Positions 14,773 through 61,926 of a stretch of 64,000 bases of DNA are shown piece by piece (position 1 is the first letter of the stretch; each line of letters starts with the position of its first letter). The notes beneath the pieces were generated by a model, which had not been told where the DNA came from, searched no databases, and saw nothing but the letters and a program-made list of their open reading frames with translations. Made by a program: the position numbers and the translations under genes. This stretch comes from a virus (lineage: Duplodnaviria > Caudoviricetes), in the IMG/VR virus record IMGVR_UViG_2974513674_000001, positions 32,001 through 96,000 of that record; one strand, written 5' to 3'.

Positions 14773-15546
14773 ATGCCACTTATTACCCCATACAGCCCAT
14801 CGGACCTGGGCCAGAAATGTGAAGTCATCAACGTGGCCTGGAAACTCGCAGGCGTTCGTACAGGGACTTCCGAGCAGGTCGCCAGGCATTCGACTGCCAA
14901 TACGCAGAACAATCTTTGGTCAACCTCGATGATCGAGTGCCGCCACCCGGAAGGTAAGCTGTGGCGTTCGATGTTCATCCCGATCACCGCATCAGGTGGG
15001 TCCGGGATGTCCATCACCTGGTGGGGTAAAGACGACCAGGTCAAGGGCCAGGCTCAGTGCAAGATTGTCAGCGAGACGGAATGGTACTCGGTGGTCAAGT
15101 CGAAGGCGGTCGCCAAAGGCTACGATGTCGAGACCTACATTGGCCGGTCAATCCCTCTGCAAGTTGGGCACAACTTCGTCAAGGAGCTGTCTGAGAACTC
15201 TTCTCTGCCGCAGCTACCTCAACTGGCATTCACCCCTGACCAAGCCTCGAACCTGTTCGCCCAGGGTCAGGGTGACAAGATCGGCGCGACCATCGGCAAG
15301 GCTCTATCCAACATCCTGCCAACCAACAACTTCTTCACCAACATCAACGGCAAAGGTCACAGCCTGGGAGCCCTGATGAGCGAAGGGCTGTCCAACGCGA
15401 TGACCACTTCCGAGAAGGATGTGATCGCCGGCCTGATGCGCGAGCTGACCGGTGACTTGAAGCCCATCGAAGGCATCAAGAAGGCCCCTGAGCCGCAGAT
15501 CGACCGCGAAGAGGTCTACGGTAGCGGTTGGGGCGCATTCGGCTGA
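14773..15546 (+). CDS. WGR-like domain protein with C-terminal tag (WGAFG)
   Basis: WWGK...GQ...KSK..KGY resembles the WGR domain. Confidence 0.55.
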   Translation: MPLITPYSPSDLGQKCEVINVAWKLAGVRTGTSEQVARHSTANTQNNLWSTSMIECRHPEGKLWRSMFIPITASGGSGMSITWWGKDDQVKGQAQCKIVSETEWYSVVKSKAVAKGYDVETYIGRSIPLQVGHNFVKELSENSSLPQLPQLAFTPDQASNLFAQGQGDKIGATIGKALSNILPTNNFFTNINGKGHSLGALMSEGLSNAMTTSEKDVIAGLMRELTGDLKPIEGIKKAPEPQIDREEVYGSGWGAFG

Positions 15547-15553
15547 CAGCAAG

Positions 15554-15594
15554 CCCGCACGCCCCCTCAAGCGCGCTTGTACAATGCAAGCGCG
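15554..15594 (+). promoter_or_regulatory. Phage promoter, -10 in hairpin loop
   Basis: CCC-N7-CCC-N13-TACAAT(15580); CGCGCTTG/CAAGCGCG. Confidence 0.7.
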
Positions 15595-15617
15595 ACAATC
15601 AAACGAGAGAACAACCC

Positions 15618-16313
15618 ATGTCCGAAGTCAAAGAAGACCCGGAGCTGATCGCTCTCATGCCCATCGAAGCGAGCATGAGTGGCCGGAACTCCGTGTACAA
15701 CTTCTGCGAGCGACGCGGTCAGTCCGTCAGCTACGCAGTGTGCCTGCACACCATCCGCCGCATCGAGAACAACGACCTGCCCGCAGAGATTGCGGTCGAG
15801 TGTCAGCGTGGCTACTGCCACAACAACTGCATCGCCAAGAAGCACAAGGCTGAAGAGGTCGCGGCCGGGCACGCTCTGTACTTCAGGCCGCGCCCTCGTC
15901 ACATCACCGACCCGGTTGCAGTCAGCACCGAGAACAAGAGCGCCGGCGCAGTCAGCAGCGGCAAATACGATATGTCCAACGCGAGCTACGCACGCGGATG
16001 GGCAATTGGTGGCGGCGCTGGTGAAGTTCGTGACAAGCCGAAAGCGAAAGCGCGCCCCGCTCCACCACCGCCGAAGAAGAAAGACGGCTTCGTTCAAGAA
16101 GGCATGTCCGACGTCGTGAACGTGCTCATGAAAGAGCACGAAGTGAAGAAGGCAGCGCCCGCCCCGAAACCAGCAGCACCCAAGCCAGCACCCGAAGCAC
16201 CCAAGCCGACGGCAGCAGCACCCGCAGCCGATCTGACATCCACCCGCCCGCTGCCAGGTGAGTCCACTGCGGACTTCATCAAGCGCCGGGCAGCACTGAA
16301 GGTAGCAAAATGA
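15618..16313 (+). CDS. Hypothetical protein, Cys-rich N-domain and Pro/Ala/Lys-rich tail
   Basis: ORF follows a promoter and is coupled to the ligase. Confidence 0.65.
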   Translation: MSEVKEDPELIALMPIEASMSGRNSVYNFCERRGQSVSYAVCLHTIRRIENNDLPAEIAVECQRGYCHNNCIAKKHKAEEVAAGHALYFRPRPRHITDPVAVSTENKSAGAVSSGKYDMSNASYARGWAIGGGAGEVRDKPKAKARPAPPPPKKKDGFVQEGMSDVVNVLMKEHEVKKAAPAPKPAAPKPAPEAPKPTAAAPAADLTSTRPLPGESTADFIKRRAALKVAK

Positions 16314-17980: not shown

Positions 17981-20065
17981 ATGGATCGCACCCAACGCAT
18001 CGTCATCATGCGAGAGGCAATCACGAAGATTGCCCAAATCTTGACGGACAGCAAAGTCCTCGTCACCCAAGCGGGTGTGAAGGCATTCGTCAAGTACGAC
18101 GACCGCACGCACAAGGCAACTCGGGTGAACATCCCGATGATCCCGGACGACGCCAGCGACGAGCTGATCGAAGGGATTCAGGGCTTCCTTGACAGCGAAA
18201 TCTCCAAAGTCCTGTACGCAGACGGCAAGTCGAACCTGCGCGCAGCTCATGAGAACATGAGCGGCCTGTACAACCCGCTTGAGTCCTTCTTCTGCGAGAA
18301 GGAAATGGTCAAGAACTTCGCGGGTTCGCGCCACAACCTGGCGAACATGCACCAGACCTTCGTGGACAAGTTCATCGAGCCGAAGCTGAAAGAAGCCCTC
18401 GCGAACGGTGCCGAAGAGCAAGAGCTGTTCCAAGTCCTCGCGATCCCAGCACTGCGTGCCTGGGGCGGCCAGAAGTTCTTCATCGACTACATGAGCGACA
18501 AGTGGTCGCTGATCGCCGGCATTCAGAAGCAGCTCGACCCAGTCGCCAAGAAGATGCAGGGTATGACCAAAGCGTCTGACTGCTACGACATGGCGAAAGA
18601 GATTCGCAACGTCGTGATGGGCGAACCCCCTGAAGGCGACGGCGATAACCCGTTCGGTGACGAAGACCCGAGCAAGTCCGGTAAGGGCGGCGGAGGTGGA
18701 GGCGCAGGTGGTCGCGGTGGCAAGTCAGGCGCGAAGGGCAAGCAGCCTCCGAAAGCAAACAAGGGTGCCGGCGCAGGCGAACTCGGTGACGAAGAAGACG
18801 AAGACCCAAGCGCTGCCGGCGGTGGTGGCAAGCCCGAACTCGAAGACGACGAGAAAGAAGAGGGTGAGGACGGCGAAGAGGATGATGATGACCTCGACGA
18901 CGATGAAGAGGACGAAGGCGATGACGAAGGTGATAAGCCTGAGCGTCGTGAAGAAGAGTCCGGTGAGGGTGGTGACGGCATCAGCTCTCAGCAAGAGAAC
19001 CAGGGTCCGAAAGAGGACACTGAGTCCGCTCAGTCTGAATACGGTGGCGCCAACTACCTGAAAGACTTCGACTGGAACAAGACCCAGGACATCGGCACTG
19101 AGTTTGGCCAGTACGTCAGCGACCTGTGCTCCACTGAAATGGCTGAAGAGGACTACACCGTCTTCACCCGTGAGTGGGACCAACTCGAAGCTCCAAAAAT
19201 CCCATCGTCGTACAGCCCAAAATGGCTCGAAGACATGGAGAGCGCAATCGCGGGCATGGTCGGCCCAGTGTCTCGCAACCTTGAGCGTGCGTTTGCAGCC
19301 CGGAACAAGTCGCTCACCCAGCAGGGTCTGCGCAAAGGCAAGATGTCGTCGAACAACCTGTATCGACTCGTCGCCGGCGACGACCATATCTACAAGAGCA
19401 AGATCGAGCACAAGACCCGGGAGATTGCCGTGTCGCTGGTGATCGACTGTTCGGGCTCGATGGGTGGCTCCAAGATCCACACTGCCATGTGCAGCGCCTG
19501 GGTACTTGCTGACGTCCTGGGTCGCCTGGGTGTCGAGTGCGAAATCATGGGCTTCACCACCGGTGACCTGTACGCACAGCGGTCGAAAGACCTCTACAAA
19601 GAAATGTGCGACGAGCACGCCGCCGGCAGGGAATGGGACCGCTGCGAGCCACTGCGACTGCCGATGTTCAAGACCTTCAAAGAGAAGTTCTCCATCGAAG
19701 TCAAGAAGCGGATGGCCAGCTATGCGCACGTCCAGTCTTCGATGGCATCGAACATCGACGGCGAGTCGATCCAGTATGCCTACGAGTCTCTGAACCGACA
19801 CGCCAATCGGGGTAAGAAGAAAGGCAAGATGATGATCGTCTTCAGCGATGGTCAGCCAGCAGGTGGTGTATCCAGTGCCAAGCTGAACGCCCACTTGAAA
19901 GCAGTGGTCAAGCGGATCGAGAAAGACGGTACGAATATCGTCGGCGTCGGCATCATGTCCAACGCTGTGCAGCACTTCTACCGTAAGAACGTGAAACTGG
20001 ACAACGTCGCCGACTTGCCGGGCATCGTCCTGAATCAGTTGCGGGACGCGCTGCTTGCCAGCTAA
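17981..20065 (+). CDS. CobT-like VWA (MIDAS) protein with acidic linker
   Basis: VSLVIDCSGSM MIDAS, EIMGFTT, NIDGE, IVFSDGQP, VGVGI; long D/E/G-rich linker. Confidence 0.85.
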   Translation: MDRTQRIVIMREAITKIAQILTDSKVLVTQAGVKAFVKYDDRTHKATRVNIPMIPDDASDELIEGIQGFLDSEISKVLYADGKSNLRAAHENMSGLYNPLESFFCEKEMVKNFAGSRHNLANMHQTFVDKFIEPKLKEALANGAEEQELFQVLAIPALRAWGGQKFFIDYMSDKWSLIAGIQKQLDPVAKKMQGMTKASDCYDMAKEIRNVVMGEPPEGDGDNPFGDEDPSKSGKGGGGGGAGGRGGKSGAKGKQPPKANKGAGAGELGDEEDEDPSAAGGGGKPELEDDEKEEGEDGEEDDDDLDDDEEDEGDDEGDKPERREEESGEGGDGISSQQENQGPKEDTESAQSEYGGANYLKDFDWNKTQDIGTEFGQYVSDLCSTEMAEEDYTVFTREWDQLEAPKIPSSYSPKWLEDMESAIAGMVGPVSRNLERAFAARNKSLTQQGLRKGKMSSNNLYRLVAGDDHIYKSKIEHKTREIAVSLVIDCSGSMGGSKIHTAMCSAWVLADVLGRLGVECEIMGFTTGDLYAQRSKDLYKEMCDEHAAGREWDRCEPLRLPMFKTFKEKFSIEVKKRMASYAHVQSSMASNIDGESIQYAYESLNRHANRGKKKGKMMIVFSDGQPAGGVSSAKLNAHLKAVVKRIEKDGTNIVGVGIMSNAVQHFYRKNVKLDNVADLPGIVLNQLRDALLAS

Positions 20066-20155: not shown

Positions 20156-21382
20156 GTGAGCGATAAAATCAAGTGCGAAATCTGCGGCGAAGAAGTTCAC
20201 AGCATCGCCAACCACCTGAAGACTGCGCACAACGAGGACTCGGCCAAGCCGATGGACCTCGAAACTTATCGCGCTACCTATCCGGGCGCTGAAATCTTGT
20301 CCGAGCTGGGCAAGAAGAAAATGGCCGAAATGAAAGCCAAGCGTGAAGCTGAAGAAGCCAAGACCGCTGCTGCGAACCCTGAAGCTGGCGCCAAGCCTGC
20401 TGCATCGACCAACCCGGACATCGCGAAGGTCTTCTTCCACGAAGTCTTCAAGTTCCCGAAGAGCCCCAAGTCGGCCTTCACCAAAGCCGGCACCGGCATC
20501 CCTTGCACTGCTGACGCCCGTGATAGCAGCGTCGATGGTCACATGATCCCGGCCTGGTCCGACAACTACATCCTGAACCCAGACCTGACGAAGACCGTCA
20601 TGATGGCGTTCGAGATTCGCACCCCGATCTTCCTGTATGGTCACTCGGGTGTGGGCAAGTCGTCGATCTTCAAGCAAATGTGTGCCGGCCTGAACCGCCG
20701 TCTGTTCCGCTTCCAGCACACCGTTGACACCGAAGAGTCGCACATCGTTGGTCAGTGGGTCGTCAAGCCTCACATCAACCCGGATGGCTCTGCTGTATCG
20801 GTCACTGAGTTCGAGCTGGGTCCATTGCCAATGGCCATGCTCAACGGCTGGACCTACCTGGCTGACGAAATCGACCGTTCGTCTCCGACTGTTCTGTCCG
20901 CGTATCAAGCGATTCTCGAAGGCGAGCCGCTGATCATCAAGAACGCCCCTGCTCACCTTCGTGTGATCAAGCCGCACCCGCTGTTCGCGTTCGCTGCAAC
21001 TGGTAACACCAACGGCACCGGTGACCAATCCGGTCTGTACCAAGCAACTCTGACCCAAGACGCCGCGACCATCGAGCGTTTCGGTGTTGTAGCGATGGTG
21101 GACTACCCACCAGAGAAGCAAGAAATCGCCATGATCGCAGCAGCGACTGGTCTGTCCGAAGCTGACGCGAAGCGTATTCGCCAGTTCGCTGACGAGATTC
21201 GCACCAAGTCGTTCCCGAACATCGTGTCGCTCACCATCGGCCCGCGTGTTGCGATCAACATCGCTCGCATCGGCATGATGAAGGCTGACTTCGTAGAAGG
21301 CGCGCTGTATGCCTACTGCAACCGTCTGCCTGAAGCTGAGAAAGAAGCAGCACTGGGTGTCGCGAAGCGTATCCTGGCGTAA
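20156..21382 (+). CDS. CobS/MoxR-like AAA+ ATPase with N-terminal C2H2 finger
   Basis: CEIC...H...H; GHSGVGKS; LADEID; ATGNT; ATIERF. Confidence 0.88.
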   Translation: MSDKIKCEICGEEVHSIANHLKTAHNEDSAKPMDLETYRATYPGAEILSELGKKKMAEMKAKREAEEAKTAAANPEAGAKPAASTNPDIAKVFFHEVFKFPKSPKSAFTKAGTGIPCTADARDSSVDGHMIPAWSDNYILNPDLTKTVMMAFEIRTPIFLYGHSGVGKSSIFKQMCAGLNRRLFRFQHTVDTEESHIVGQWVVKPHINPDGSAVSVTEFELGPLPMAMLNGWTYLADEIDRSSPTVLSAYQAILEGEPLIIKNAPAHLRVIKPHPLFAFAATGNTNGTGDQSGLYQATLTQDAATIERFGVVAMVDYPPEKQEIAMIAAATGLSEADAKRIRQFADEIRTKSFPNIVSLTIGPRVAINIARIGMMKADFVEGALYAYCNRLPEAEKEAALGVAKRILA

Positions 21383-21995: not shown

Positions 21996-24900
21996 ATGAA
22001 CAACCTCTTAGGGGCCAAGACCCACTTTAGTCTCGGCGAATCCATCTACGACCCGGAAGCCCTCGTCAAAAAGGCAGAGCTTGCCGGGTACGATGGCATT
22101 GTCGTGACCGATGTCGAATCAATCGACTCGATGCCAATCCTGGCGGGCAAGGCGAAGGGCCTGCAAGTAGGACTGGGCGTGCAAATCTCAGTCGTCCAAG
22201 ACCTGACCTGGGTCGCAGCCAAACGGGGCGAGCCCAAGCGCGCGCCAAACCCGTTCTTCATGCCCACTCTGTTTGTTCGGAACGATGCCGGCTTCGCGGA
22301 CTTGTGCGAGCTGTTGACCCTCGCCCAGAGCGAAGATCACTTCTGCACGAAGCCAAGCCGTATGCAGATCGACCTGAGCGAGCTGCTGGCGTTCGTGCAG
22401 CGGGGCAACCTAACGATGACGCTGGGAAGCGCTTATAGCGCGCTACAGCACAAGCAACGCGAAGCGCTGCTAGATGCGTGCTGCGATGTCTTGGACGTCT
22501 CACAGATGCTCTGTGAGCTGATCCCAGTTAGCAGCGCATTCTATGATCGACACAACTTCAACACGCTGAAGCTGATGCAGGAACGGGGCATCGAAGGCAT
22601 CGTTACCAGGCCGACCCTCAATCAGAAAGACGAGGTCAGCTTCCGCAACACGATGAACTCGATCCTGTCGCACGACAAGGTCGACAGCACCTGGCGCCGC
22701 GAGCCGCCCGAAGACCTGCACATCATCGAAGCAACCGAAGTGGTCACACACGTCGGCACCCTGATCGAACGCATGGTCAAAATGGGGTTCGATGATGACG
22801 CGGCAACGGACATGATCAATCAGGCTTGGTGCAAGAACCAGGCGTACTTCACTGACCACCCGTACAAGTGGTCGAAGATGACCCCGAGCCTGCCCGTCAT
22901 GTCTGCCAACCCAATGGCTGACATCGTCGCGATCTGCAAGCAAGGCTGGAAAGAGCGCCTGGGCAAAGAGGTGTTCGGGTACAAGCCTGACGCAAGCCTG
23001 CTGCCCAAGTACCAGGAGCGCCTGAAGTATGAGCTGTCGATTCTCCAGAAGATGGAGTTCGAGCCGTACTTCCAGCTCGTTCACTACATCGTCAACTGGT
23101 CGAAGAACGACGGCATCATGGTTGGCCCGGGTCGGGGTTCGGTAGGTGGTTCGCTCGTTGCGTACCTGATGGGGATCACCGACGTGGACCCGATCCGCTT
23201 CGACCTGATCTTCGAGCGCTTCATCAACCCGGAACGTATCGACTTGCCCGACGTCGACCTCGACTTCATGTCCAGTCGCCGTCAAGACATCGTCGACCAC
23301 CTGGTGAGCAAGTTCGGCGACGAGCGTGTCGTCCAGATCGCCAACTACAACACCATCGCCGGTGCTGGTGCGATCCAAGCGGTGGGCAAGGCTCACGGCC
23401 TGCATGAGAGCCAGTACGAGTGCTCGAAGCTGGTTCCGAAAGAGTCGGGCGTGCCAATCCCTCTTGAGAAAGCGGTCGCGTTCGTGCCCGAACTTGAGAA
23501 GCTGGCTCTGAACCACCCTGAAGTCTGGGCAGCGTCCGTCGGCCTGCAAGGCACCTTCAAGAACTTCGCCAAGCACGCAGCCGGTGTCGTCGTAGCCGGT
23601 ACTGACATCGTGGGTCGCGGCGTAGTGAACCGGCGCCAGGGTGTGGGTATCGTGAACTGGGACAAGCGGGTCGTCGAAGACTTCGGCTTGATCAAGCTCG
23701 ACGTGCTGGGTCTGTCCAACTTGGATATTCTCCGTCTCGCACGGGACTACATCCGCGAAGCGCACGCAATCGAGGTCGACTTCACCACGCTTCCGCTCGA
23801 CGACAAGAAAGTCCTGGACAGCTTCGCAGCGGGCAAGACCTATGGCGTGTTCCAGTTCGAGTCTGGGGGTATGCGCAAGCTGCTCAAGGAACTCGGCAGC
23901 GGGGGCAATCTGACCTTTGAAGACTGTGTCGCCGCAACAGCACTGTTCCGACCCGGCCCAATCCAAGCTGGCCTGATGGACCTGTACGTGTCGATCAAGA
24001 AGGAATTCACCGAGCCGGAGTATCTGCACCCGAACATGAAAGCCGCACTGGAGCCCACGATGTCTGTGATGGTCTACCAGGAGCAGGTCATGCAAATCTC
24101 CCGTGACCTCGCCGGCTACACGTTCCCAGAGGCAGACGGCCTGCGGAAGATCATGGGTAAGAAAGACCCGGTCAAGATGGCCGAGCAGCGCGACAAGTTC
24201 GTCGATGGCTGTATCGCTACGTCTGGATTGGATCACGCAACCGCAACCTTCATCTTTGAGCAGATCGAGAAGTTCGCTGGCTACGGCTTCAACAAATCCC
24301 ACTCCGTCGCGTACACCCTCATTTCCTACATGACCATGTGGGTGAAGGTCTACTACCCAGAGGCGTTCTACGCCGCGTGCTTGTCGATCTTGGACGAGCA
24401 GAAGCTCTCAGGGCTAGCCAAAGACGCGCAAGCGAACGACATCTACATTGTCCCGCCTGACATCAACCACAGCTCAGGGCGGTACGAGGTGGGCTTTGAT
24501 GCGGCACGGGGTCAGAAGATTCTGTACGCACCGTTCCAGTCGATCAAAGGCATGAGCGACAAGTCGGCCGCTGCGATTGTGGCAGCACGTCAGAAGCTGG
24601 GTCGCGGCTTCAAGAATAAAGCGGAGCTGATCCTCGAAGTGGACCGGCGCGCTTGCAACAAGCGTCACCAGGAAATGCTGGACAAGATCGGGGCATTCGC
24701 CAAGATCGAACCTGGCCAACTGGACGCCCGACACCCGGATCGGTTGCGTGACCAGAAGGAGCTGCTGCCGGGCATCGTCGTCAGCAACGTGAAGGCGGAG
24801 AGGGTGATCGAAATCACTGGCGATGTCAGCGCAGAGCTGATCCAGATCGTCGACGACTTCCAAGCACACAAAGGCTGCGACGGCTGTCCGTTCATTGGTC

Positions 24901-25388
24901 GACCGCACCCTATGCCAGTCCTGGGCAAGAAGCCGAAGATCATGATCGTCCTCGATGGCCCATCGTACAAAGAGGAAGAGAAGGGTCAGATGATGGTCGG
25001 TGACACCGGCGCATTCATCAAGGCTGCGATGACGAAGGCTGGGCTCAAGATGTCTGAGGTCTACGTGACCAGCTACATCAAAGCCCGCAAGCTGAAGGAC
25101 GAGGAAATCGAGAACACGACCGCGAACGGCTGCGGCCGCTATCTCAACCGTGAAATCGACCTTCTGAAGCCGCCGGTGATCGTCGCCCTGGGCAGCAAGT
25201 CCGTGCGGCAACTGGTGCCGGACATCAAGGGCGGGTGGGAAGAGAACTGCGGCAAGTCGTTCTTCGATCCAAAGGCCGACTGCACAGTGGTCAGCGGTTT
25301 CAACCCGGCGATGATCTGCTTCGACGGCGCGAAACAGGCTCTGCTCGACCAGGTGTTCCAACAGGTAGCTGACATCTTCAGCGTATAA
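21996..25388 (+). CDS. dnaE: DNA polymerase III alpha (DnaE) with C-terminal family-4 UDG-like domain
   Basis: GPGRGSVGGSLVAY, FERFINPER, PDVDLDF, KHAAG, KLDVLGL, FQFES, FAGYGFNKSH; C-terminal CxxC...IVLDGP..E...REIDLLKP.VIVALG...NPA. Confidence 0.95.
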   Translation: MNNLLGAKTHFSLGESIYDPEALVKKAELAGYDGIVVTDVESIDSMPILAGKAKGLQVGLGVQISVVQDLTWVAAKRGEPKRAPNPFFMPTLFVRNDAGFADLCELLTLAQSEDHFCTKPSRMQIDLSELLAFVQRGNLTMTLGSAYSALQHKQREALLDACCDVLDVSQMLCELIPVSSAFYDRHNFNTLKLMQERGIEGIVTRPTLNQKDEVSFRNTMNSILSHDKVDSTWRREPPEDLHIIEATEVVTHVGTLIERMVKMGFDDDAATDMINQAWCKNQAYFTDHPYKWSKMTPSLPVMSANPMADIVAICKQGWKERLGKEVFGYKPDASLLPKYQERLKYELSILQKMEFEPYFQLVHYIVNWSKNDGIMVGPGRGSVGGSLVAYLMGITDVDPIRFDLIFERFINPERIDLPDVDLDFMSSRRQDIVDHLVSKFGDERVVQIANYNTIAGAGAIQAVGKAHGLHESQYECSKLVPKESGVPIPLEKAVAFVPELEKLALNHPEVWAASVGLQGTFKNFAKHAAGVVVAGTDIVGRGVVNRRQGVGIVNWDKRVVEDFGLIKLDVLGLSNLDILRLARDYIREAHAIEVDFTTLPLDDKKVLDSFAAGKTYGVFQFESGGMRKLLKELGSGGNLTFEDCVAATALFRPGPIQAGLMDLYVSIKKEFTEPEYLHPNMKAALEPTMSVMVYQEQVMQISRDLAGYTFPEADGLRKIMGKKDPVKMAEQRDKFVDGCIATSGLDHATATFIFEQIEKFAGYGFNKSHSVAYTLISYMTMWVKVYYPEAFYAACLSILDEQKLSGLAKDAQANDIYIVPPDINHSSGRYEVGFDAARGQKILYAPFQSIKGMSDKSAAAIVAARQKLGRGFKNKAELILEVDRRACNKRHQEMLDKIGAFAKIEPGQLDARHPDRLRDQKELLPGIVVSNVKAERVIEITGDVSAELIQIVDDFQAHKGCDGCPFIGRPHPMPVLGKKPKIMIVLDGPSYKEEEKGQMMVGDTGAFIKAAMTKAGLKMSEVYVTSYIKARKLKDEEIENTTANGCGRYLNREIDLLKPPVIVALGSKSVRQLVPDIKGGWEENCGKSFFDPKADCTVVSGFNPAMICFDGAKQALLDQVFQQVADIFSV

Positions 25389-25460: not shown

Positions 25461-26741
25461 ATGAAAGAAGCAAACGACATCGACGAGCTGGAAGCCCTGC
25501 TTTCTGGTCTTAACGAAGACGAACTGAACCAGCTCGAAGAGTTGGATACGCCTGTGGCCAAGCCAGCGCCTGTCACCGACGACGATGTCACCGACGCAGA
25601 ACTGATCGGCGAAATCGAAGACGAGCCAGCCGCAGCACCTGCAAAGCCTGTGAAGCGTGTGAAACGTCTCAAGCCTCTGCCGGAAGAAACCCCGAAGCCG
25701 ACTGCTGAAGCGTCTGACGAAGACGCAGAGCTGGCCGCCCTGGCAGAACTCGACACTCAACCTGTGATCGAGAAGGCCCCAGAGCCTGAACCTGAGCCCG
25801 AACCCGAGCCTGAAGTAGAAGCCGGCAACCCAGGCACCGGCGCAAGCGCTGCTGAAATCGTAGCCGAGCAAGTGATCGACCTGCTGACCACCCTGCCGCC
25901 GCAGTACGGCCTGGCTGAAGACGAAGACCTGTCTGAAATCTTCGACCCGATCCTGAACCGCATCACCGAGAACTCGAAGATCCACTTGATCGAGAAGGCG
26001 TTGCGCAAGGCTCTGATCAAGAAGACTGGCCTGGACCCGACCGGCATTGTCACCCCACTCGAAGAACAGCCTGCGAAGACTGTAACCACCGAAGAAGTGA
26101 CCGTGCATGTAGAGCCTGTCGTCGAGAAGACGCCTGAACCCGAACCCGAGCAAGCCGGCGACAGCGATGCTGAACTCGAAGCCTTGCTGGCAGCAGTCCC
26201 TGAAGTAGCCCCAGCTCCGAAGGCAACTGTCACCTCCCCGTCGAAGCCGGTAGCAGTAACCCCGACTCGCAAGGCCGGTGGTCTGAACACCTTCATCGAC
26301 GCTGACCAGTTGCAGAAAGACCTGCACTTCACCGAGTTGACCATCAACGATGGCATGACCCGGCAAGCAGCGCTGTTCGCTCACTACGCCCGGTTGTCTG
26401 CTGACGCCACGTATCAGTCTGACCGTGCGAAGCAGCAAGTGGACCTCCTGGAAGCGCAGCTCAACCAGAAGTTCCGTGATTCGCTGGTCACAGCCGGCAC
26501 CAAGTTCACTGAAAAATCCATCGACTCGATGGTCATCCAGGACAGCAGCTACCAGGCCGCCCAGGAACGCGCTCACGAAGCGAAGGCTATCGCGTCGATG
26601 GTTGCATCTGCGGCGGACAGCTTCCGTCACCGCAAAGACATGCTGATCCAAGTTGGTGCAGACCTGCGCCTGGAGAAGCAGGGTGAACTTCGCATGAAGG
26701 CGCACCCGGGTCAGAGCGCCCTTGATCAACTGGAGAAATAA
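25461..26741 (+). CDS. Acidic low-complexity N-terminus plus UvsY-like helical C-domain (putative recombination mediator)
   Basis: C-terminal ~130 aa follows the T4 UvsY pattern by eye; lies in the SSB/RecA cluster. Confidence 0.5.
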   Translation: MKEANDIDELEALLSGLNEDELNQLEELDTPVAKPAPVTDDDVTDAELIGEIEDEPAAAPAKPVKRVKRLKPLPEETPKPTAEASDEDAELAALAELDTQPVIEKAPEPEPEPEPEPEVEAGNPGTGASAAEIVAEQVIDLLTTLPPQYGLAEDEDLSEIFDPILNRITENSKIHLIEKALRKALIKKTGLDPTGIVTPLEEQPAKTVTTEEVTVHVEPVVEKTPEPEPEQAGDSDAELEALLAAVPEVAPAPKATVTSPSKPVAVTPTRKAGGLNTFIDADQLQKDLHFTELTINDGMTRQAALFAHYARLSADATYQSDRAKQQVDLLEAQLNQKFRDSLVTAGTKFTEKSIDSMVIQDSSYQAAQERAHEAKAIASMVASAADSFRHRKDMLIQVGADLRLEKQGELRMKAHPGQSALDQLEK

Positions 26742-26744: not shown

Positions 26745-27269
26745 ATGGATCTACTGACTGTTGGCTGCATTGCGACCGTTGTCGCAGTAGCAGCCGGCGT
26801 CACGGTTTATGTGAACCGTAAACGCCGCCGTGCAATCGCTGCAATGGAACGTCGTCGTGCTGAGCGCCGCGATCCACCCATAACCGAGCCGAATCGCTAC
26901 TCCGGTCCTCCAAGTAGCCTGGTTCAAAAGGTCAATGGCAACAAAATTCACGACGCCGGTCCGAAAGACATCGCCCTGATGCCGGATCGTCGCCGAGCAC
27001 CAACGCCGGATCGTCGTGTGACCCCGCGCCCAGCAGCAACCGGTGCAGGTCGTCGTGCAGATGACGAGGCAGAGCGCCGCCGTCGTGACAATGACCGCCG
27101 TGATGACAGCGACTACATCGCTCCGCAATGTTCCCCGTCTTATCACGACACCAGCTCCAGCCATCGTAGCAGCAGCTCCTGCGGTGGTTCTTCCTGGGGT
27201 GGTTCGTCGAGCAGTTCCGACAGCTCGTCGTCCTCCAGTTCTGATTCCGGTTCGTCTTCGTGCGACTGA
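26745..27269 (+). CDS. Membrane-anchored protein with Arg-rich middle and Ser-rich tail
   Basis: N-terminal TM; tail SSSSSDSSSSSSSDSGSSSCD. Confidence 0.6.
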   Translation: MDLLTVGCIATVVAVAAGVTVYVNRKRRRAIAAMERRRAERRDPPITEPNRYSGPPSSLVQKVNGNKIHDAGPKDIALMPDRRRAPTPDRRVTPRPAATGAGRRADDEAERRRRDNDRRDDSDYIAPQCSPSYHDTSSSHRSSSSCGGSSWGGSSSSSDSSSSSSSDSGSSSCD

Positions 27270-27451: not shown

Positions 27452-28291
27452 ATGGGCATGTCCATTCAAGACCTGATCGCTGGCAAACAGAAAGACATGG
27501 CCGCGAAGAAATCGCGCCAAAACACTCTGAAGCCGCTCCCAGGCACTCACACCTACCGTGTTCTGCCGTCCTGGCGTGGTGGTGACGAGAAGCAGTTCTG
27601 GCACGACTTTGCCATGCACTTCATCAAAACCCCTGACAGCGCTGGCAAACCTGCTGCGGTGTATGTCTGCACCGAGAAGACCTTCGGCAAGCCTTGCGAA
27701 GTCTGCGATGCAGCGAAGAAGCTGATGGCTGTATCGACTTCGGACGATCAGACCAAGATGCTGAAAGAAGCTCTGTCCGCTCAGCGCTACCTGCTGAACG
27801 TGCTGCACCTGACTGGCACCGAGCCAGAAAAAGTGCAGATCATGGAAGTCGGCCAGGGTGTGTTTGAAGCAGTGTGCGGTCTGATCGGCGAGTACGGTGA
27901 CATCACCGACCTCAACGAAGGCACCGACCTGAAGATCACTCGTACCGGTACTGGTCTCGACACCAAGTACACCGTCATGCCGGCGGCGAAGTCGAAGCCT
28001 GTTCCTGCGAAGATCGTTGCAAACCTGCCTAACCTCGACGAGTTCGTAGCTCAAGAGAACCCGGCCGGTGAAACGAAGGCTCTGACTTCGGTTGGTGCAA
28101 TCGTCGGCATCCTGCCAAGCAACAGCGCTGCTCCTGCACGACGTGGTAGCCATCCAGCTTTGGCTGACCTGTCCGCGGACGCAGATGACGCAGAGTTTGA
28201 AACGGTCAGTCCGACTGCCAAAGCCTCTGCAACCCCCGCTGGCGATGACCTCGACGGCCTGGATGAACTCGACGATCTTCTCGAAGACTGA
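27452..28291 (+). CDS. gp32-like single-stranded DNA-binding protein
   Basis: YRVLP, HF, C...CEVC, RYLLNV, D...GTDLKITRTGTGLDTKY, acidic C-tail. Confidence 0.8.
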   Translation: MGMSIQDLIAGKQKDMAAKKSRQNTLKPLPGTHTYRVLPSWRGGDEKQFWHDFAMHFIKTPDSAGKPAAVYVCTEKTFGKPCEVCDAAKKLMAVSTSDDQTKMLKEALSAQRYLLNVLHLTGTEPEKVQIMEVGQGVFEAVCGLIGEYGDITDLNEGTDLKITRTGTGLDTKYTVMPAAKSKPVPAKIVANLPNLDEFVAQENPAGETKALTSVGAIVGILPSNSAAPARRGSHPALADLSADADDAEFETVSPTAKASATPAGDDLDGLDELDDLLED

Positions 28292-48027: not shown

Positions 48028-48224
48028 TCACGTTCCTCACAGCAATCGTCGCCTTCATGATCGGTCACGGTATCGGCTGGAGCCGGGCTCACTTGACGGT
48101 AGCGACAGAGTGCCAGCGCCTGGGCAAGTTCTTCGTCAAGAAGGACGTTTATCACTGCACGAAGGTGGAGTGGGCTCACCCGGAACCTGAGAAAGAAAAG
48201 GAAGAGCGCACCTATGGCAATTGA
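48024..48224 (+). CDS. Small membrane hypothetical protein
   Basis: N-terminal TM, ECQRLGKFFV. Confidence 0.55.
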   Translation: MITFLTAIVAFMIGHGIGWSRAHLTVATECQRLGKFFVKKDVYHCTKVEWAHPEPEKEKEERTYGN

Positions 48225-50003: not shown

Positions 50004-50570
50004 ATGGTATGGAAAGTGGCAACAATCGGCGACATCGAGACCACCGGCCTGAAGCAAGAAGACGGGCACCGGATCATCGAAGTCGCCTTGTCCGTTTGGG
50101 CTTTCAACACCGTCACTGGTGACAAGCGCAAGCTGGGCAAGCCGTACATTCAGCGCATCAACCCGGAACGACCTATCGACCCAGGAGCTGAAGCAGTCCA
50201 CAAGATCAGCCTGGCTGACTTGCGTGGCAAGCCGAAGTGGGACAAGGTCGCCCCAACTGTTTCGGGAATCCTCTCTCGCACCGACGTGTTCATCGCTCAC
50301 AACGCAGCCTTCGACGCCCCGTTCCTCGCGCTCGAACTGATCCGTGTGAAGATGCCGATGCCGACCTTCGACGTGTACTGCACGATGGAGCAAGGGCGCA
50401 AAGCTACTGGCTTCGGCAAAGTCCCCAACCTGGGCGAACTCGCCTACGCTTGCGGCTATGACTACGACACCGACGCAGCCCACTCGGCTCTCTACGACAC
50501 CCAGTTGTTGGAGAACTGCTATTGGTACGGTGTTGAAAACGGCCTCTTCAAGAGCCCGGCTGACATCTAA
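50004..50570 (+). CDS. dnaQ: DnaQ-like DEDDh 3'-5' exonuclease (epsilon)
   Basis: DIETTGL...RIIE, HNAAFD, HSALYD. Confidence 0.9.
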   Translation: MVWKVATIGDIETTGLKQEDGHRIIEVALSVWAFNTVTGDKRKLGKPYIQRINPERPIDPGAEAVHKISLADLRGKPKWDKVAPTVSGILSRTDVFIAHNAAFDAPFLALELIRVKMPMPTFDVYCTMEQGRKATGFGKVPNLGELAYACGYDYDTDAAHSALYDTQLLENCYWYGVENGLFKSPADI

Positions 50571-50644: not shown

Positions 50645-51136
50645 ATGGCTGATATTTATCAGAACATCGACGGGACCAGCATCGGGTCGAAGACCTGGGC
50701 CGAGAAGAAGGACTCGCCGGAGTGGACTCTGAAGGAGTACCGCAACGACAAAATCTGGGTGCGCCTGCACTGGATCGGCCGCTATCGCAAAGACCTGCCG
50801 GCTGAGTACCGTCATTCGCACGGCATCCAGGTCTACAACCGCTTGATCGTCAAGAAGACCGAGTGGGAAGAAGAGACCCTGGAAGATAAAGGCTGGGTGC
50901 TCGATCCGGCTGCGACCCAGACCTTCCGCACCAAGTCTGCTGCTGAAGCTGCATACGAAGACATGCTCCTGCGCTACACCGCATCGAGCCTGGAAATGGA
51001 TGAAGACGGTGAAATGACCTTCGTCGAAGTGGACAACCAGCTCGCACCGGTGGTGCCAGGTTCGTCGCTGATCCTCGATGAAGAACAGGTCGCACGCGCT
51101 GCTGAGAAAGGCATCGACGCCGGGGGCTGGTCTTGA
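50645..51136 (+). CDS. Hypothetical protein with C-terminal tag (AGGWS)
   Basis: ORF follows a promoter. Confidence 0.6.
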   Translation: MADIYQNIDGTSIGSKTWAEKKDSPEWTLKEYRNDKIWVRLHWIGRYRKDLPAEYRHSHGIQVYNRLIVKKTEWEEETLEDKGWVLDPAATQTFRTKSAAEAAYEDMLLRYTASSLEMDEDGEMTFVEVDNQLAPVVPGSSLILDEEQVARAAEKGIDAGGWS

Positions 51137-52733: not shown

Positions 52734-52946
52734 ATGGGCAAGCTGGATGCGTGCAATCTGGATGTGTACAAGCACGGCGAGAGCATGGGCCTGTACGACA
52801 TGCCAAAAGACGAAGCCGAAAAGCTCTGTGAGCGGCTGACCAAAGAAACTGGCCGTCTTCACGACTGGCACTACATCGGCGGCCGGGTGCATGTGAAAGC
52901 TCTGCCAAAAGACTTCAAGCCTGAAACAGTGAGTGACTGGGCATGA
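52734..52946 (+). CDS. Small hypothetical protein (ends SDWA)
   Basis: GGAG SD. Confidence 0.55.
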   Translation: MGKLDACNLDVYKHGESMGLYDMPKDEAEKLCERLTKETGRLHDWHYIGGRVHVKALPKDFKPETVSDWA

Positions 52947-53700: not shown

Positions 53701-53740
53701 GCCAAGTAGTGCCACTCAGCAGTCTGTAGAATTGCAGACT
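53701..53740 (+). promoter_or_regulatory. Phage promoter, -10 in hairpin loop
   Basis: GCC-N7-GCC-N13-TAGAAT(53727); AGTCTG/CAGACT. Confidence 0.7.
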
Positions 53741-53754
53741 TGAAGGAGAGTTTT

Positions 53755-54036
53755 ATGCGGAAGAGCAGACAACCCGGCTTCGACAAGATGCTCGAAGCCA
53801 AGCGTGAAAACGCCAAGAACATCATGAGCCAGTTCACCCAGAACTGCGACGGGTGCAGCGTCGTCAGCAGCAAGGCGAAGCTGTTCGACCTGGAAGAAGG
53901 CCGCTTCTGCCTGAAGTGCCTCCCGGATGGCATGACTGGCATCGAAGCGCTCGAAGCCCACACTGAGCGTCAGGCTCGCTTGCAAGAGCAGCGCGACAAC
54001 CCGGTGCGGCCGGAAGACTTCGGTGGCTGGTCATGA
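53755..54036 (+). CDS. Small zinc-finger protein with C-terminal tag (RPEDFGGWS)
   Basis: CDGC...CLKC; AAGGAG SD. Confidence 0.6.
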   Translation: MRKSRQPGFDKMLEAKRENAKNIMSQFTQNCDGCSVVSSKAKLFDLEEGRFCLKCLPDGMTGIEALEAHTERQARLQEQRDNPVRPEDFGGWS

Positions 54037-54317
54037 ACCAGAACATGAAGGACTTCTTCTACGGGATTCCCGTCTACAAGCAGCACCGAATGGACGACGA
54101 GGATGACCTCGAAGCCGAGACCATCAAGGCCGAGAACAGCGCCATCAAGCGCGCCCTGGCTATGGCTATCGAGCAGCGAACTCGTCACCGTGACGGGAAA
54201 GTTGAATCTGTTCGCCGTCAGATCGAGCAGGCTGAACTTGACGCCATCGCTGCCGACTTCGAGGCCGAAGAGCGCAAGAAGAGGCTTGAGAAGATGGGCG
54301 CCGGGAGCTGGGCATGA
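54033..54317 (+). CDS. Coiled-coil protein with C-terminal tag (AGSWA)
   Basis: ATGA-coupled. Confidence 0.6.
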   Translation: MNQNMKDFFYGIPVYKQHRMDDEDDLEAETIKAENSAIKRALAMAIEQRTRHRDGKVESVRRQIEQAELDAIAADFEAEERKKRLEKMGAGSWA

Positions 54318-54712
54318 AGTACACCGCAGAATCTGAAAACCTAGCTATCGAACTGGCCAGGCTCGACATGGAGCAGCGAGCCATCGAGAAGAAGAAGGCT
54401 GCTGAAATCAAGGCTGCGGCCGACATGGTGAAGCTGGAGAAAATCCGCATCGAGCGTGAGGCGGCAGCGATCAAGGAGGCTCAGGAGGCAGCAGCGGCCG
54501 AAGCCTACACCTGGATGAAGGTGTTCAGCGCGCTCGATGATAGAGGCTTAGAGGCTGACAAGATCATGACGGCCATCAAGCAGATGCAGGAACAAGGGCA
54601 CACCGCTGAAATGTGCCTGGAAATGATCGAGAAGACGGCTATCAAGCCCAAAGCTCCACCCGCACCAAAGAAAGAACCACCCCGCCCGGCTGCATTCGGC
54701 ACATGGGCATAA
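54314..54712 (+). CDS. Coiled-coil protein with C-terminal tag (RPAAFGTWA)
   Basis: ATGA-coupled. Confidence 0.6.
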   Translation: MKYTAESENLAIELARLDMEQRAIEKKKAAEIKAAADMVKLEKIRIEREAAAIKEAQEAAAAEAYTWMKVFSALDDRGLEADKIMTAIKQMQEQGHTAEMCLEMIEKTAIKPKAPPAPKKEPPRPAAFGTWA

Positions 54713-56313: not shown

Positions 56314-56537
56314 TCTGGCTCCATCGACTGCGCAATCTGCCGATGCTCCTGGTCCTGCACCTGAAGCACAGCAACCAGTTCATGAAAGTGGAGGACGCCC
56401 AGCTCGATCTGTATGCAGCCTGCACGTCGATGCCGGGTGAAATCGAGATTCATGCTCAACTGACCCGGACTCTCGAAGCGGAACTTGAAACGATGGCTGA
56501 CATCGACGAGCGGATCGAGAAGCTATGGCACCGTTGA
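56310..56537 (+). CDS. Small hypothetical protein
   Basis: ATGA-coupled. Confidence 0.5.
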   Translation: MIWLHRLRNLPMLLVLHLKHSNQFMKVEDAQLDLYAACTSMPGEIEIHAQLTRTLEAELETMADIDERIEKLWHR

Positions 56538-56716
56538 AGTTTGAAGAAAGGCTCAAGCAGGTCTGCATCGCCGAAATGATGCAGCTCCTGGTTGTGCGAG
56601 CAGACCAGCTTCGTCGCGCTGACGAGATTCGCCAGCGTGAGGAAGATGAACTTGAAGAAGCCATACAAACTGAATGGCAAATCGAAACTCAAAAACTGAT
56701 GGGAGGTTGGGCATGA
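56525..56716 (+). CDS. Small coiled-coil protein with C-terminal tag (MGGWA)
   Basis: ORF in operon. Confidence 0.55.
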   Translation: MAPLKFEERLKQVCIAEMMQLLVVRADQLRRADEIRQREEDELEEAIQTEWQIETQKLMGGWA

Positions 56717-58906: not shown

Positions 58907-58942
58907 CCCAGCCTCCCCCTCTCTCACAGCTCGTATAATCGA
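58907..58942 (+). promoter_or_regulatory. Phage promoter
   Basis: CCC-N7-CCC-N14-TATAAT(58934). Confidence 0.65.
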
Positions 58943-58994
58943 CGTCACAGACAAAGCGCAGTCGTTGCGCAGTCACAGTGAGGGAACGTCGCAT

Positions 58995-59749: not shown

Positions 59750-61116
59750 CCATGACAACTATCCACCGCGTTTTCCTCTACAGCAGCGACGTCGGCCGTC
59801 TGACACACGAAGACGACTTCAACACCCCCGAAGAAGCGAAAGCCTGCGTCGAGCAGTGGATCGATGACCGTGATTGGGATGAAGAGCTGGAACGTGGCAT
59901 GTTCCGCATCGACGTGCGCAAGAACGGCCACCTGAAGGGCAACTACGGCGCCTACGCTCACGCCTATCCGATCCTGAAGAAGCCTGTGAGCGTCGAAGGC
60001 GAGAGCATCGAAGCCTTCAACGAGAAGAACCGCAAGTACCAGACCGACATCCAGGTCAAGTCGCGCCAGATCCTGGGTCATGTGCCGTATCCGACCCGTG
60101 AATGTGCTGAGCTGGCCATCGACCGAGCTGTTGACGAGCTGGCTCAAGAGCTGGACATCAGGCTGTACGGCCGCATTCAGCGTGAGCAGCGCGCTGCCGG
60201 CATTCATGAGCGCTTCATCACCGACCTCACGCCATTCGGCTTCAAGGTCTATCGCGGTGATGGTCCGAAGTTCCAGTACGACGAATCGGTGACCATCGAA
60301 GACCTGAAAAACCTGAAGTTCCCAGAGCCGAGCACCATCCTCTCGAAAAGACAGGGTTTCGACGTCAAGTCCGGCGCTCTGCGAGTCACCGACCCTTGCT
60401 ACAGCCTGGACACCTGGTGTGCCGGCACCACCAGCAACGTCATGAATGGCCGCTGGCTCGCACAAGTTGGCCAGCACCGTGAAGCGATGGACAAGTGGAC
60501 GAAAGAACGCTTCGAGAAAGAAATCGCCGAGCTTGAGAACCCGGAAGAGCAGATTCGGGTCAAGCAACTGCAAGAAGCCATCAAGAACCTGGATGGCCTT
60601 GAGCTTGAAGAGGCTCAGAAGAACCTCAAGGGCCTGATTGGCTTCTACGAGAGCCACGCACTGCGCGAGTTCGGCCGCTGCTGGGGCAACCCTGACGACT
60701 GGAGCGGTCGAGTAGCCTTCCTGCACATCCGGCATGAGTCTGTAGCGAACGAGCCGATTGACCCGCTCTCCTTCGTGCCGAACGATGACTTCCAGGTTGG
60801 TGTGGACAGTGGACAGGCCGGGTTCTTTGACCTCGCACCGTTCGAGCTGGTCGCAGCCCAGAAGGAACATAAGGGCGACACGCCAGAACATGAAGCCTTC
60901 TACGAGGCGTGCGGCGAGAACACCCTGGGATCGGAAATGTGGGGCATCGTCCAGGGTATGGGTTGCGTCAGCAGCAGCGGTTATGGCGACGGCGGCTACA
61001 AGCTGTGCGAACGTCGCAACGAAGCCGGCGAGCTGATCGAGGCTCGCATCGTCTACATGCTCGAAGGCAGCGAAATGTTCCCGGGCATTGGCGGTGACGA
61101 AGAAGACGAGGAATAA
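59746..61116 (+). CDS. Multi-domain protein with DUF4241-like C-domain
   Basis: SGALRVTDPCY, GVDSGQAGFFD, SGYGDGGY. Confidence 0.6.
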   Translation: MTMTTIHRVFLYSSDVGRLTHEDDFNTPEEAKACVEQWIDDRDWDEELERGMFRIDVRKNGHLKGNYGAYAHAYPILKKPVSVEGESIEAFNEKNRKYQTDIQVKSRQILGHVPYPTRECAELAIDRAVDELAQELDIRLYGRIQREQRAAGIHERFITDLTPFGFKVYRGDGPKFQYDESVTIEDLKNLKFPEPSTILSKRQGFDVKSGALRVTDPCYSLDTWCAGTTSNVMNGRWLAQVGQHREAMDKWTKERFEKEIAELENPEEQIRVKQLQEAIKNLDGLELEEAQKNLKGLIGFYESHALREFGRCWGNPDDWSGRVAFLHIRHESVANEPIDPLSFVPNDDFQVGVDSGQAGFFDLAPFELVAAQKEHKGDTPEHEAFYEACGENTLGSEMWGIVQGMGCVSSSGYGDGGYKLCERRNEAGELIEARIVYMLEGSEMFPGIGGDEEDEE

Positions 61117-61120
61117 GTAG

Positions 61121-61513
61121 ATGGCCACATTGACCGGCAAGCTGATCGCAAAAGCCCAACGTGCAATCGTGGCCTACTACCACCTCTGCACCGATCATGA
61201 CGACTGGGGCACCCTGGATGAGCACTGGCTTCAGGTTCTCGCTGAGAGCCCGGCACCAGGCTACTTGAACAGGTACTTCGTCCGAGTCAAGAACACCAGA
61301 CGCTTCGAGCACCAGAAGAACGCTCTGAGCGACATCGACCGCAGCAGAGGCATCATGTGCGTCACCTTTCTGCATGGGTCGATCACACCTGACACCGGGT
61401 GGTACATCAAGCCGAGTGGTCGCCATGCAAACCCACTCGAAAACTATCAACATAGAGACGCGCAAGAAGAGATTGCGACCAACAGACCAGAGAATTTCGG
61501 GAGCTGGGCATGA
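61121..61513 (+). CDS. Hypothetical protein with C-terminal tag (RPENFGSWA)
   Basis: GAGGA SD. Confidence 0.6.
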   Translation: MATLTGKLIAKAQRAIVAYYHLCTDHDDWGTLDEHWLQVLAESPAPGYLNRYFVRVKNTRRFEHQKNALSDIDRSRGIMCVTFLHGSITPDTGWYIKPSGRHANPLENYQHRDAQEEIATNRPENFGSWA

Positions 61514-61926
61514 GTGGTATGAACACCGAGCAGTGCAAAGAGCTGATCATGAAGGTGATGAACGAGCTGATCACCAAAGTTGGTCTGAACGCAATGGCCG
61601 TCTACCGCCAGGAGACTGGCAGCTCGCTTCAAGATGTGCTCGACACCAAGAAGTGGAAACGCACGCGCAAGTGGGGATCGGCCGGCAACGTCAGCCGTGA
61701 GTTCTCGCACATGGGCTTCAGGGCCACCGTCGTGCTGCGTGAGGTGATAAACACAGACGGCACGCTCAGTGTCGAGATTGAAATGGGTGAGCTGCCGAAA
61801 CCTCTGCAAGAGGCAACGAAAGACCTGAAAGACCTTGACCTGCCGGGCGATCAGACCGCGCGGCGCGTAGACAAACCATCAATGACAGAGGGGCCGAAGC
61901 CAGAAGGTTTCGGGGCATTCGCATGA
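61510..61926 (+). CDS. Hypothetical protein with C-terminal tag (KPEGFGAFA)
   Basis: ATGA-coupled. Confidence 0.6.
   Translation: MSGMNTEQCKELIMKVMNELITKVGLNAMAVYRQETGSSLQDVLDTKKWKRTRKWGSAGNVSREFSHMGFRATVVLREVINTDGTLSVEIEMGELPKPLQEATKDLKDLDLPGDQTARRVDKPSMTEGPKPEGFGAFA

Follow-up and report, generated by a model that had tools for sequence, protein, structure and literature searches.

A recurrent C-terminal peptide tag on unrelated proteins of a Pseudomonas syringae phage: a candidate docking signal

Unrelated proteins of a Nickievirus phage share a short C-terminal tag, in which a Gly, a free position and a Trp or Phe are followed by one small last residue. We suggest that this tag is most probably a portable docking peptide, a short linear motif (SLiM) read by one conserved partner. 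The tag was seen in a stretch of 64,000 nucleotides (hereafter the window), which represents bases 32001-96000 of a 112,225-bp phage genome (IMG/VR record IMGVR_UViG_2974513674_000001). The rest of the same genome was also analysed, and positions are those of the window unless they are given as genome positions. Nearly all genes of the window lie on the plus strand, and its G+C content is about 58%. The gene for the alpha subunit of DNA polymerase III (PolIII-alpha, 21996-25388) was 87% identical at the DNA level to its counterparts in the P. syringae phages Nican01, phiK7B1 and ZY21; for hairong the figure was 74%. Nican01 and hairong are assigned to the genus Nickievirus, and the phage of the window is a Nickievirus, a Pseudomonas syringae siphophage of 112 kb. 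The genomes of Nican01 and hairong were taken whole for comparison.

Frequency of the tag and its carriers

The strict pattern G-x-[WF]-[ASG]-stop (G.[WF][ASG]$) matched 13 open reading frames (ORFs) in this genome, 11 of them in the window, 15 in Nican01 and 14 in hairong. From the frequency of the pattern within proteins, only 0.10-0.17 C-terminal tags were expected per genome (binomial P 1e-22 to 1e-25). In this genome the tag was carried by 13 of 159 plus-strand ORFs, against 0.10 expected (binomial P 1.5e-23), and by about 8% of the phage's proteins (about 1 in 12). Shuffling the last 30 residues of each protein (2000 rounds) gave a mean of 0.10 tags and a maximum of 3, and the pattern tested 1-30 residues upstream of the C-terminus, as a control, gave 0 matches in this genome and 0-2 over the whole comparison. 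Trp stood at position -2 in 14 of 165 ORFs, compared with a background of 1.3%. A preliminary description of the window had listed 11 strong cases and nine ORFs with a penultimate Trp. All 11 ended as quoted, the count of nine was right, and the enrichment of the motif lay far above the expectation from both internal frequency and shuffled tails. The shared C-terminal tag is therefore confirmed, and is stronger than first noted. Literature searches recovered no description of this motif.

The carriers in the window were all on the plus strand. The first, a 257-aa ORF after the primase gene (14773-15546), ends in YGSGWGAFG (tag codons 15529-15543); its orthologs, at 43-71% identity, have an almost identical tail followed by TGA or TAA. 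The most conserved carrier is a 231-aa ORF that overlaps the end of sbcC (34459-35154, hereafter post-SbcC) and ends in DFGGWA (codons 35137-35151). It is followed by a 294-aa ORF ending in DIGGWA (35145-36029; codons 36012-36026), whose hairong ortholog, at 27% identity, ends in EIGSWS. A 138-aa ORF (48214-48630) ends in MGAFA (codons 48613-48627), with MGKFA and MGNFS in its orthologs, and a 163-aa ORF after the epsilon exonuclease gene (50645-51136) ends in DAGGWS (codons 51119-51133) and matches PHROG 5241, a family of unknown function. Three carriers lie close together: a 98-aa ORF ending in RPEDFGGWS (53740-54036; codons 54019-54033), with a hairong ortholog at 28% identity ending in KPDKYGEWA; a 94-aa ORF ending in GAGSWA (54033-54317; codons 54300-54314); and a 132-aa ORF ending in RPAAFGTWA and then TAA (54314-54712; codons 54695-54709). 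A 63-aa ORF (56525-56716) ends in LMGGWA (codons 56699-56713). The last two are a 130-aa ORF ending in RPENFGSWA (61121-61513; codons 61496-61510), with KPEGYGTWA and KPAGYGAWE in its orthologs, and a 138-aa ORF ending in KPEGFGAFA (61510-61926; codons 61909-61923), whose orthologs end in KPEGFGAFA and KPGNWGSFA with different codons. Outside the window, tagged ORFs were found at genome 98569-99081 (YGLFG) and genome 107855-108187 (FGHFS).

A 70-aa ORF on the same strand (52734-52946) had been listed as a weak case. It ends in SDWA, keeping the W-A and lacking the Gly, and since its orthologs end in GHGEWA (Nican01) and ESPWA (hairong) it is a degenerate member of the family. Two borderline cases fared worse: the ORFs ending at 12741 (FGALV) and 49487 (GGRFI) are not tagged, and their orthologs end in KKPWYRV and SDTDAT.

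A BLASTP comparison of the tagged proteins with all ORFs of the three genomes returned only orthologs and no cross-matches within a genome at E 1e-3, so the carriers are unrelated families and not paralogs. The tag was kept in orthologs at 23-45% identity, and several ORFs found only in hairong were also tagged. Pfam and PHROGs scans of 14 tagged ORFs assigned no function and revealed no family common to them. The hairong annotation lists one carrier as a host nuclease inhibitor. The carriers lie in the replication, nucleotide-metabolism and small-ORF region, with none among head, tail or lysis genes.

Selection on the peptide and coupling to the next gene

Codons were compared over 13 ortholog sets. 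The fixed positions of the tag (-5, -4, -2 and -1) showed 13% nonsynonymous and 19% synonymous change. The free position -3 showed 39% nonsynonymous change, and the 10 upstream codons 40% nonsynonymous and 23% synonymous change. Amino-acid change was thus about threefold lower in the fixed tag codons than in the linker. The fixed Gly was spelled GGA, GGG, GGT or GGC, and amino-acid swaps within the tag were conservative (F/Y/W and A/S/G). Because the fixed codons vary synonymously as usual but little in amino acid, selection acts on the peptide. This upholds the argument for protein-level selection that had been drawn from varied Gly codons and W/F swaps.

The ending could instead be a by-product of translational coupling, in which an in-frame Shine-Dalgarno sequence, a spacer and an ATGA overlap with the next gene (GGA GGN TGG GCA TGA) would encode a functionless peptide. 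Nine of the 13 tagged ORFs overlap the next start, and the match to GGAGG was 4.2/5 at tagged junctions, compared with 3.2/5 at other junctions with NTGA ends. Of the 7 genomic copies of the 9-mer TGGGCATGA, 6 lie at called gene ends. A codon of the NNA type ahead of TGA also favours GCA or TCA, so that Ala or Ser would tend to come last. Where genes are coupled, the Gly codons of the tag do double as the Shine-Dalgarno sequence of the next gene, and the preliminary description had given this coupling too little weight. The use of GGN GGN or GGG AGC codons, which also provide that sequence, shapes the free position and the choice of codons but is not the origin of the tag. The frequent Gly, Ser (AGC) and Ala (GCA) at the free position are probably due to the bases shared by the tag and the downstream ribosome-binding site. 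The same DNA bases carry a protein signal and the ribosome-binding site of the next gene.

Four tagged families are uncoupled, however. Two of them, 14773-15546 and 54314-54712, had been correctly recognised as such, and two more, ending at genome positions 99081 and 108187, were found outside the window. Together they represent 4 of 96 uncoupled ORFs (P 1.6e-6), and the last codons were GGC, TCG, and GCA followed by TAA. In 54314-54712 the next start lies 17 nt downstream, which makes it uncoupled, and its Nican01 ortholog, ending in RPEAFGTWA, is likewise uncoupled in the gene table. According to the gene tables of Nican01 and hairong, the orthologs of all four carriers are also uncoupled. 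Loss of the motif wherever the ATGA overlap is absent had been named as an outcome that would refute a role for the peptide; the tag persists in the uncoupled genes and in their orthologs.

Other observations also speak against a by-product of coupling. The synonymous sites of the tag vary freely while its amino acids do not, and the swaps between Trp and Phe (TGG/TTC) and among Phe, Tyr and Trp at position -5 are conservative for a protein and arbitrary for RNA. In hairong the free position is usually taken by K, E, R or T, and its Shine-Dalgarno character is weak. The Rhizobium phage RHph_X66 couples its genes by TGATG, yet retains the motif without its last residue, and about 54 coupled ORFs of the present genome are untagged. 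We regard a functionless by-product as highly improbable, and a pure translational-coupling artefact is essentially excluded.

The docking reading, tag dialects and alternative functions

In the tails compared, the tag comes after a charged helix or a Pro-rich linker of the type [KR]-P-[ED]-x, which bears out the linker types noted earlier. In an AlphaFold2 model of the post-SbcC protein (pLDDT 89, pTM 0.82), the tag lies in the sole low-confidence stretch, after a long helix (205-223), and the last eight or so residues have a pLDDT of 48-63. This tail is probably flexible in the modelled protein and fits a free docking peptide. A full HMMER search with the post-SbcC protein gave 18 cluster representatives, of which 16 (about 230-240 residues) were retrieved and read. 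All 16, at 22-51% identity, end in [FY]-G-x-W-[AGS], and F227, G228 and W230 are among the few invariant or nearly invariant columns. An IMG/VR scan with the single post-SbcC protein recovered one close relative. The tag has the general features of a SLiM, being short, placed in a disordered region, conserved amid diverging flanks and present on unrelated proteins.

Among cultured phages, homologs of the carriers were found only in Nickievirus, but the motif itself spreads wider, into syntenic phages of Rhizobium, Stenotrophomonas, E. coli and Acinetobacter. Rhizobium phage RHph_X66 has a backbone in common with Nickievirus (PhoH, DnaB, primase, ligase, CobT, CobS, PolIII-alpha, gp32-like SSB, exonuclease, RecA, SbcCD and RNR), and six of its ORFs end in [FY]-G-x-F-stop, including a WGR-domain protein and ORFs after PolIII-alpha and near SbcC. 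The Stenotrophomonas phage ANB28 has the endings YGGW, YGDW and YGGW and some weaker cases. In the SSU5-like E. coli phage CMS-2020a just two tags were present, WGSW after the primase and WGTW after SbcC, at positions matching those of the Nickievirus carriers 14773-15546 and 34459-35154. In an Acinetobacter phage-plasmid, LGSW and IESW endings were seen, the latter after SbcC, and two divergent metagenomic relatives have WGTFA (after SbcC) and WGAF. These dialects vary in two respects, namely the presence or absence of a single small residue after the aromatic one and the use of Trp or Phe. The distribution suggests that the tag system is old, with two core clients (post-primase and post-SbcC), and that it expanded to about 14 carriers in Nickievirus. 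The preliminary description had regarded the tagged proteins as interchangeable effectors on one hub; this was overstated, since the two oldest carriers are conserved replication and recombination core proteins and not accessory effectors. A tRNA-Trp is annotated in Nican01 and X66. In genome parts 1-4000 and 96001-112225 of the present phage, ARAGORN found only tRNA-Met, tRNA-Asn and tRNA-Arg, and no tRNA-Trp.

In the tag, a polar residue and an aromatic or hydrophobic one precede the Gly, a free position separates the Gly from the Trp or Phe, and in Nickievirus a single small residue closes the chain. We suggest that it would sit on a flexible tail behind a charged helix or Pro-rich linker. 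Through the tag, about 14 unrelated proteins of the early and middle regions would be tethered to a single common pocket, which would read two hydrophobic side chains, i and i+3, across the Gly, together with the nearby free carboxylate. A common receptor for these C-termini had already been proposed, and the codon ratios, the retention of the tag in diverged and uncoupled genes, its position on the tail and its dialects all fit that proposal; the single shared reader of all tags is itself something that we infer from the sequences. The lineage dialects suggest that the reader and the phage evolve together. If the docking reading is correct, a dozen proteins of unknown function would share one physical address. 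Identifying the reader would then place all carriers in a pathway and reveal an infection hub, probably a replication-recombination factory. Such a result would transfer widely, as dialects of the tag reach SSU5-type phage-plasmids of E. coli, Klebsiella, Salmonella and Acinetobacter and phages of Rhizobium and Stenotrophomonas. The tag would also be a candidate ready-made handle for protein tethering in these phages.

Several points weigh against this docking reading. The tag was 3.8-fold commoner on coupled than on uncoupled genes (Fisher P 0.036), and this enrichment, together with the better GGAGG match at tagged junctions, means that nucleotide-level selection contributes. The number of tags varies widely, from 2 in the E. 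coli phage to about 14 here, and the ancient two-client system and the Nickievirus expansion may differ in purpose. Every conserved phage protein was present in all tagged lineages, and co-occurrence therefore cannot pick out one of them as a phage-encoded reader.

A C-terminal degron would give the tag a different role, with an apolar tail timing the removal of its carriers by a protease of the phage or of the host (ClpXP, ClpAP, FtsH or Lon). Apolar C-terminal pentapeptides reportedly destabilise proteins in E. coli (a finding attributed to Parsell, Silber and Sauer, 1990; compare the ssrA tag). Most carriers are small early-region proteins, and the phage encodes an HslV-like peptidase. However, the oldest carriers are conserved core proteins beside the primase and SbcC genes and not transient effectors, and the invariant Gly and fixed spacing point to a specific pocket and not to general apolarity. 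There is no LAA-COOH; the endings are WA, WS, FA, FS and FG, and other lineages end in W or F. The HslV-like gene was also absent from the tagged phage ANB28. We consider a degron improbable.

Proteins might also be sent by the tag into the procapsid for injection with the DNA, as cargo is loaded into encapsulins on an HK97-fold shell. Encapsulin targeting peptides are short, Gly-containing hydrophobic C-terminal motifs behind a flexible linker, and the tag has the same architecture. All tagged lineages have kept an HK97-type capsid gene, and the carrier annotated in hairong as a host nuclease inhibitor is a plausible injected protein. Against this, every carrier is encoded with early, replication or nucleotide-metabolism genes, none is close to the head genes, coupling ties the core carriers to primase and sbcC, and the tag consensus is unlike peptides of the LGIGSL type. 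A virion proteome for the group was not found. A role in cargo loading is very unlikely.

The host sliding clamp provides another possible target. In this case the tag would be a non-canonical clamp-binding tail, docking its carriers into the cleft of the host beta clamp used by the phage PolIII-alpha, in a phage without its own clamp. The general form is alike (a polar, a hydrophobic and a small residue, then x and an aromatic one, closing a flexible tail), QLGLF is the ending of E. coli Pol II, and the genes of the carriers are concentrated in the replication and recombination region. An internal Q-K-E-L-L-P-G of PolIII-alpha looks canonical and no phage clamp was found, so the host clamp probably serves replication. 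Two conserved ORFs of suitable size that were considered as a hidden phage clamp, 51841-52677 (PHROG 3932) and 9213-9938 (PHROG 2500), had a consensus that looked mainly helical by eye, and Atlas look-ups were uninformative. The phage epsilon exonuclease (50004-50570) has [NLYW]-G-[LF]-[FY] at the place of the clamp motif of E. coli epsilon. Clamp-binding tails, such as QL[SD]LF or those of T4 gp43, gp33 and gp55 on gp45, likewise let unrelated replication proteins plug into a hub by a short hydrophobic or aromatic tail. Binding of a phage protein to the host clamp has precedents such as MuC of phage Mu, in which a Leu-to-Ala change at motif position 4 abolishes clamp binding (PMC12867686).

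The tags had an aromatic last motif residue, always Trp or Phe, on a flexible terminus, with low pLDDT after the last helix. In other respects they depart from the canonical clamp-binding motif, to which, by sequence, they do not conform. The Gln of position 1 is absent, being replaced by D, N, E, G, S or T in the compared tails and in the 16 post-SbcC sequences. Position 4, Leu or Met in clamp tails, is free (G, S, A, T, H, K, E, R or L) and changes as fast as the linker (39% vs 40%). The post-SbcC family has an invariant Trp with exactly one small residue after it, and this fixed register counts against the clamp because a cleft that accepts internal motifs should not impose one. The cleft of the host beta clamp is nearly invariant, yet the dialects differ by phage lineage. 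Unlike clamp tails, the tag prefers Trp and keeps a fixed distance from the free C-terminus, 0 or 1 residue according to lineage, and no phage clamp gene was found. The host beta clamp is an unlikely reader of the tag.

Other known C-terminal signals were compared with the tag. The SSB tip (DDDIPF-COOH) and the tails of T7 gp2.5 and gp4 are alike in that a C-terminal aromatic residue and free carboxylate on a disordered tail dock in the replisome; in T7, gp2.5 and gp4 share interchangeable acidic, Phe-ending tails that are read by T7 DNA polymerase. Here there are many carriers, no acidic run (at most 1-2 acidic residues in a tail), no Pro-Phe end and an invariant Gly, and the tail of the phage gp32-like SSB (27452-28291, Pfam gp32) is different, being acidic and Leu-rich and ending in DDLLED. 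The HbYX motif of proteasome activators (hydrophobic-Tyr-X-COOH) also combines a penultimate aromatic residue with an undemanding last residue and free carboxylate. Unlike HbYX proteins, the carriers are not AAA+ activators, their penultimate residue in the strict set is W or F and never Y, and other lineages lack the last residue. The HslV-like gene, the only proteasome-like one, is missing from ANB28. In alphavirus nsP3 and in USP10, an FGDF motif is bound by the NTF2-like domain of G3BP; it is similar as an aromatic-Gly-x-aromatic docking tetrapeptide in viral proteins, but it is eukaryotic, internal and repeated, and no NTF2-like reader was identified here.

Candidate readers and neighbouring genes

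The reader is probably conserved across the clade and encoded by the phage, because the register and the choice of Trp or Phe differ by phage lineage, which is hard to reconcile with a near-invariant host pocket. It would be part of the replication-recombination module. A host machine other than the clamp is an improbable reader. The Hfq-like ring (10000-10275), which had been proposed as a receptor, has no detectable homolog in the tagged relatives X66, ANB28 and CMS-2020a from Rhizobium, Stenotrophomonas and E. coli, which makes it an unlikely one. The HslV-like peptidase is present in Nickievirus and X66 but gave no tblastn match in ANB28. As each is missing from tagged relatives, neither can be the clade-wide reader. 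The HslV-like gene (genome 109507-110022) was only 31% identical to its Nican01 counterpart, compared with about 87% DNA identity between the two phages elsewhere.

The CobT-like VWA protein (17984-20065, plus strand; Pfam CobT_C/VWA), acting with the CobS-like AAA+ ATPase (20156-21382, plus strand; Pfam AAA_5) as its motor, is a possible reader that we put forward tentatively. MIDAS sites bind carboxylates. The CobT MIDAS motif DxSGS was shared by all four phage groups in the alignment and did not vary among 59 homologs, and CobT is present in the genomes of Nickievirus, X66, ANB28 and CMS-2020a. The MoxR-VWA systems (CobS-CobT-CobN, CbbQ-CbbO and NorQ-NorD) resemble the tagged lineages examined in having an AAA+ motor and a MIDAS adaptor, and in the solved cobaltochelatase the C-terminal helices of the client, CobN, adjoin the CobT MIDAS (bioRxiv 10.64898/2026.07.21.739949). 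Those systems have no known client tag, however, and the contact between tag and CobT is hypothetical. The MoxR/VWA pair, which had been suggested earlier as a receptor, is kept in the genomes of the four relatives examined whole or aligned and stays a candidate, but Vibrio phage ICP2 possesses both CobT and CobS and no shared tag, which argues against CobT. It is doubtful, though conceivable, that the tag is a CobS/CobT client signal, in which the VWA/MIDAS of CobT would capture the C-terminal carboxylate and the Trp or Phe, and CobS would remodel, load or release the clients. If true, this would be the first function for the widespread phage 'cobalt chelatase' genes, and would reveal a means of addressing proteins that is peculiar to a large clade of phages and phage-plasmids.

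The N-terminal domain of CobT has HExxH in 36 of 59 homologs, with SExxK in Nickievirus and RExxT in ANB28. Loss of this peptidase-like site has occurred more than once, with the MIDAS staying invariant. The state of HExxH was considered as a correlate of the tag register, but it fails as one, as the motif of ANB28 is degenerate and its tags have no extra last residue; this too counts against CobT.

Another conserved phage protein, such as the gp32-like SSB or PolIII-alpha with its PHP domain or dead UDG-like domain, may equally come into question, with a probability that we place well short of even. In PolIII-alpha a C-terminal domain like family-4 UDG (about 24840-25388) replaces the usual OB/tau-binding end, and its motifs look degenerate (LDGPS vs GEAPG, and NP vs HP). 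In the Acinetobacter phage-plasmid, a NUMOD4 endonuclease gene splits the PolIII-alpha gene into dnaE and a 'UDG family' ORF. An internal I-G-A-F-A of PolIII-alpha is tag-like but was set aside as a structural motif, which we take to be the conserved 'GAFD' motif of DnaE. The PHP domain of the E. coli enzyme holds the C-terminal residues of epsilon in a pocket (PMC3664792). The phage epsilon exonuclease has 188 aa and is without the C-terminal segment that ties E. coli epsilon to alpha. Its near-end motif [NLYW]-G-[LF]-[FY]-x-x-P, at about the position of the E. coli epsilon clamp motif, is conserved in four phage groups.

The post-SbcC gene overlaps the end of sbcC in every relative seen, and its product may on this ground be a third subunit of the SbcCD nuclease. 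Foldseek gave no match for the protein at E 0.001 or better. Weak structural matches were to Rad50/SbcC heads (Z 4.1-4.6), but the likeness to a Rad50 head was rejected, since the best VIA-align Z of 4.6 lies within noise and no clear fold relative emerged.

A Salmonella IncC plasmid (NZ_CP009413.1, 8899-16892) has an operon of a CobS-like ATPase, an ORF of unknown function, ssb, bet, exo, DUF3150 and a VWA protein. It was discarded as support for the tag, as four of its non-SSB proteins end in DHFF, GSYY, TFYW and DYFF, acidic residues with two aromatics, which is a different motif resembling the SSB tip.

Further unusual tails and neighbours were seen in the window. Three consecutive ORFs have Trp as their last residue, 40500-40865 (IPEW), 40869-41264 (DVKW) and 41846-42862 (NrdB, KGLEW), and the two small proteins may mimic the tail by which NrdB docks onto NrdA. 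Only the last 140 or so residues of the 426-aa ORF after PolIII-alpha (25461-26741) are conserved in relatives, where they form a small stand-alone ORF. This ORF gave a weak Atlas lead to UvsY and sits in a T4-like set with the gp32-like SSB, a 5'-3' exonuclease, RecA and SbcCD. The 174-aa ORF at 26745-27269, which adjoins the gp32-like SSB gene, has the Ser-rich C-terminal tail SSSSSSDSGSSSCD.

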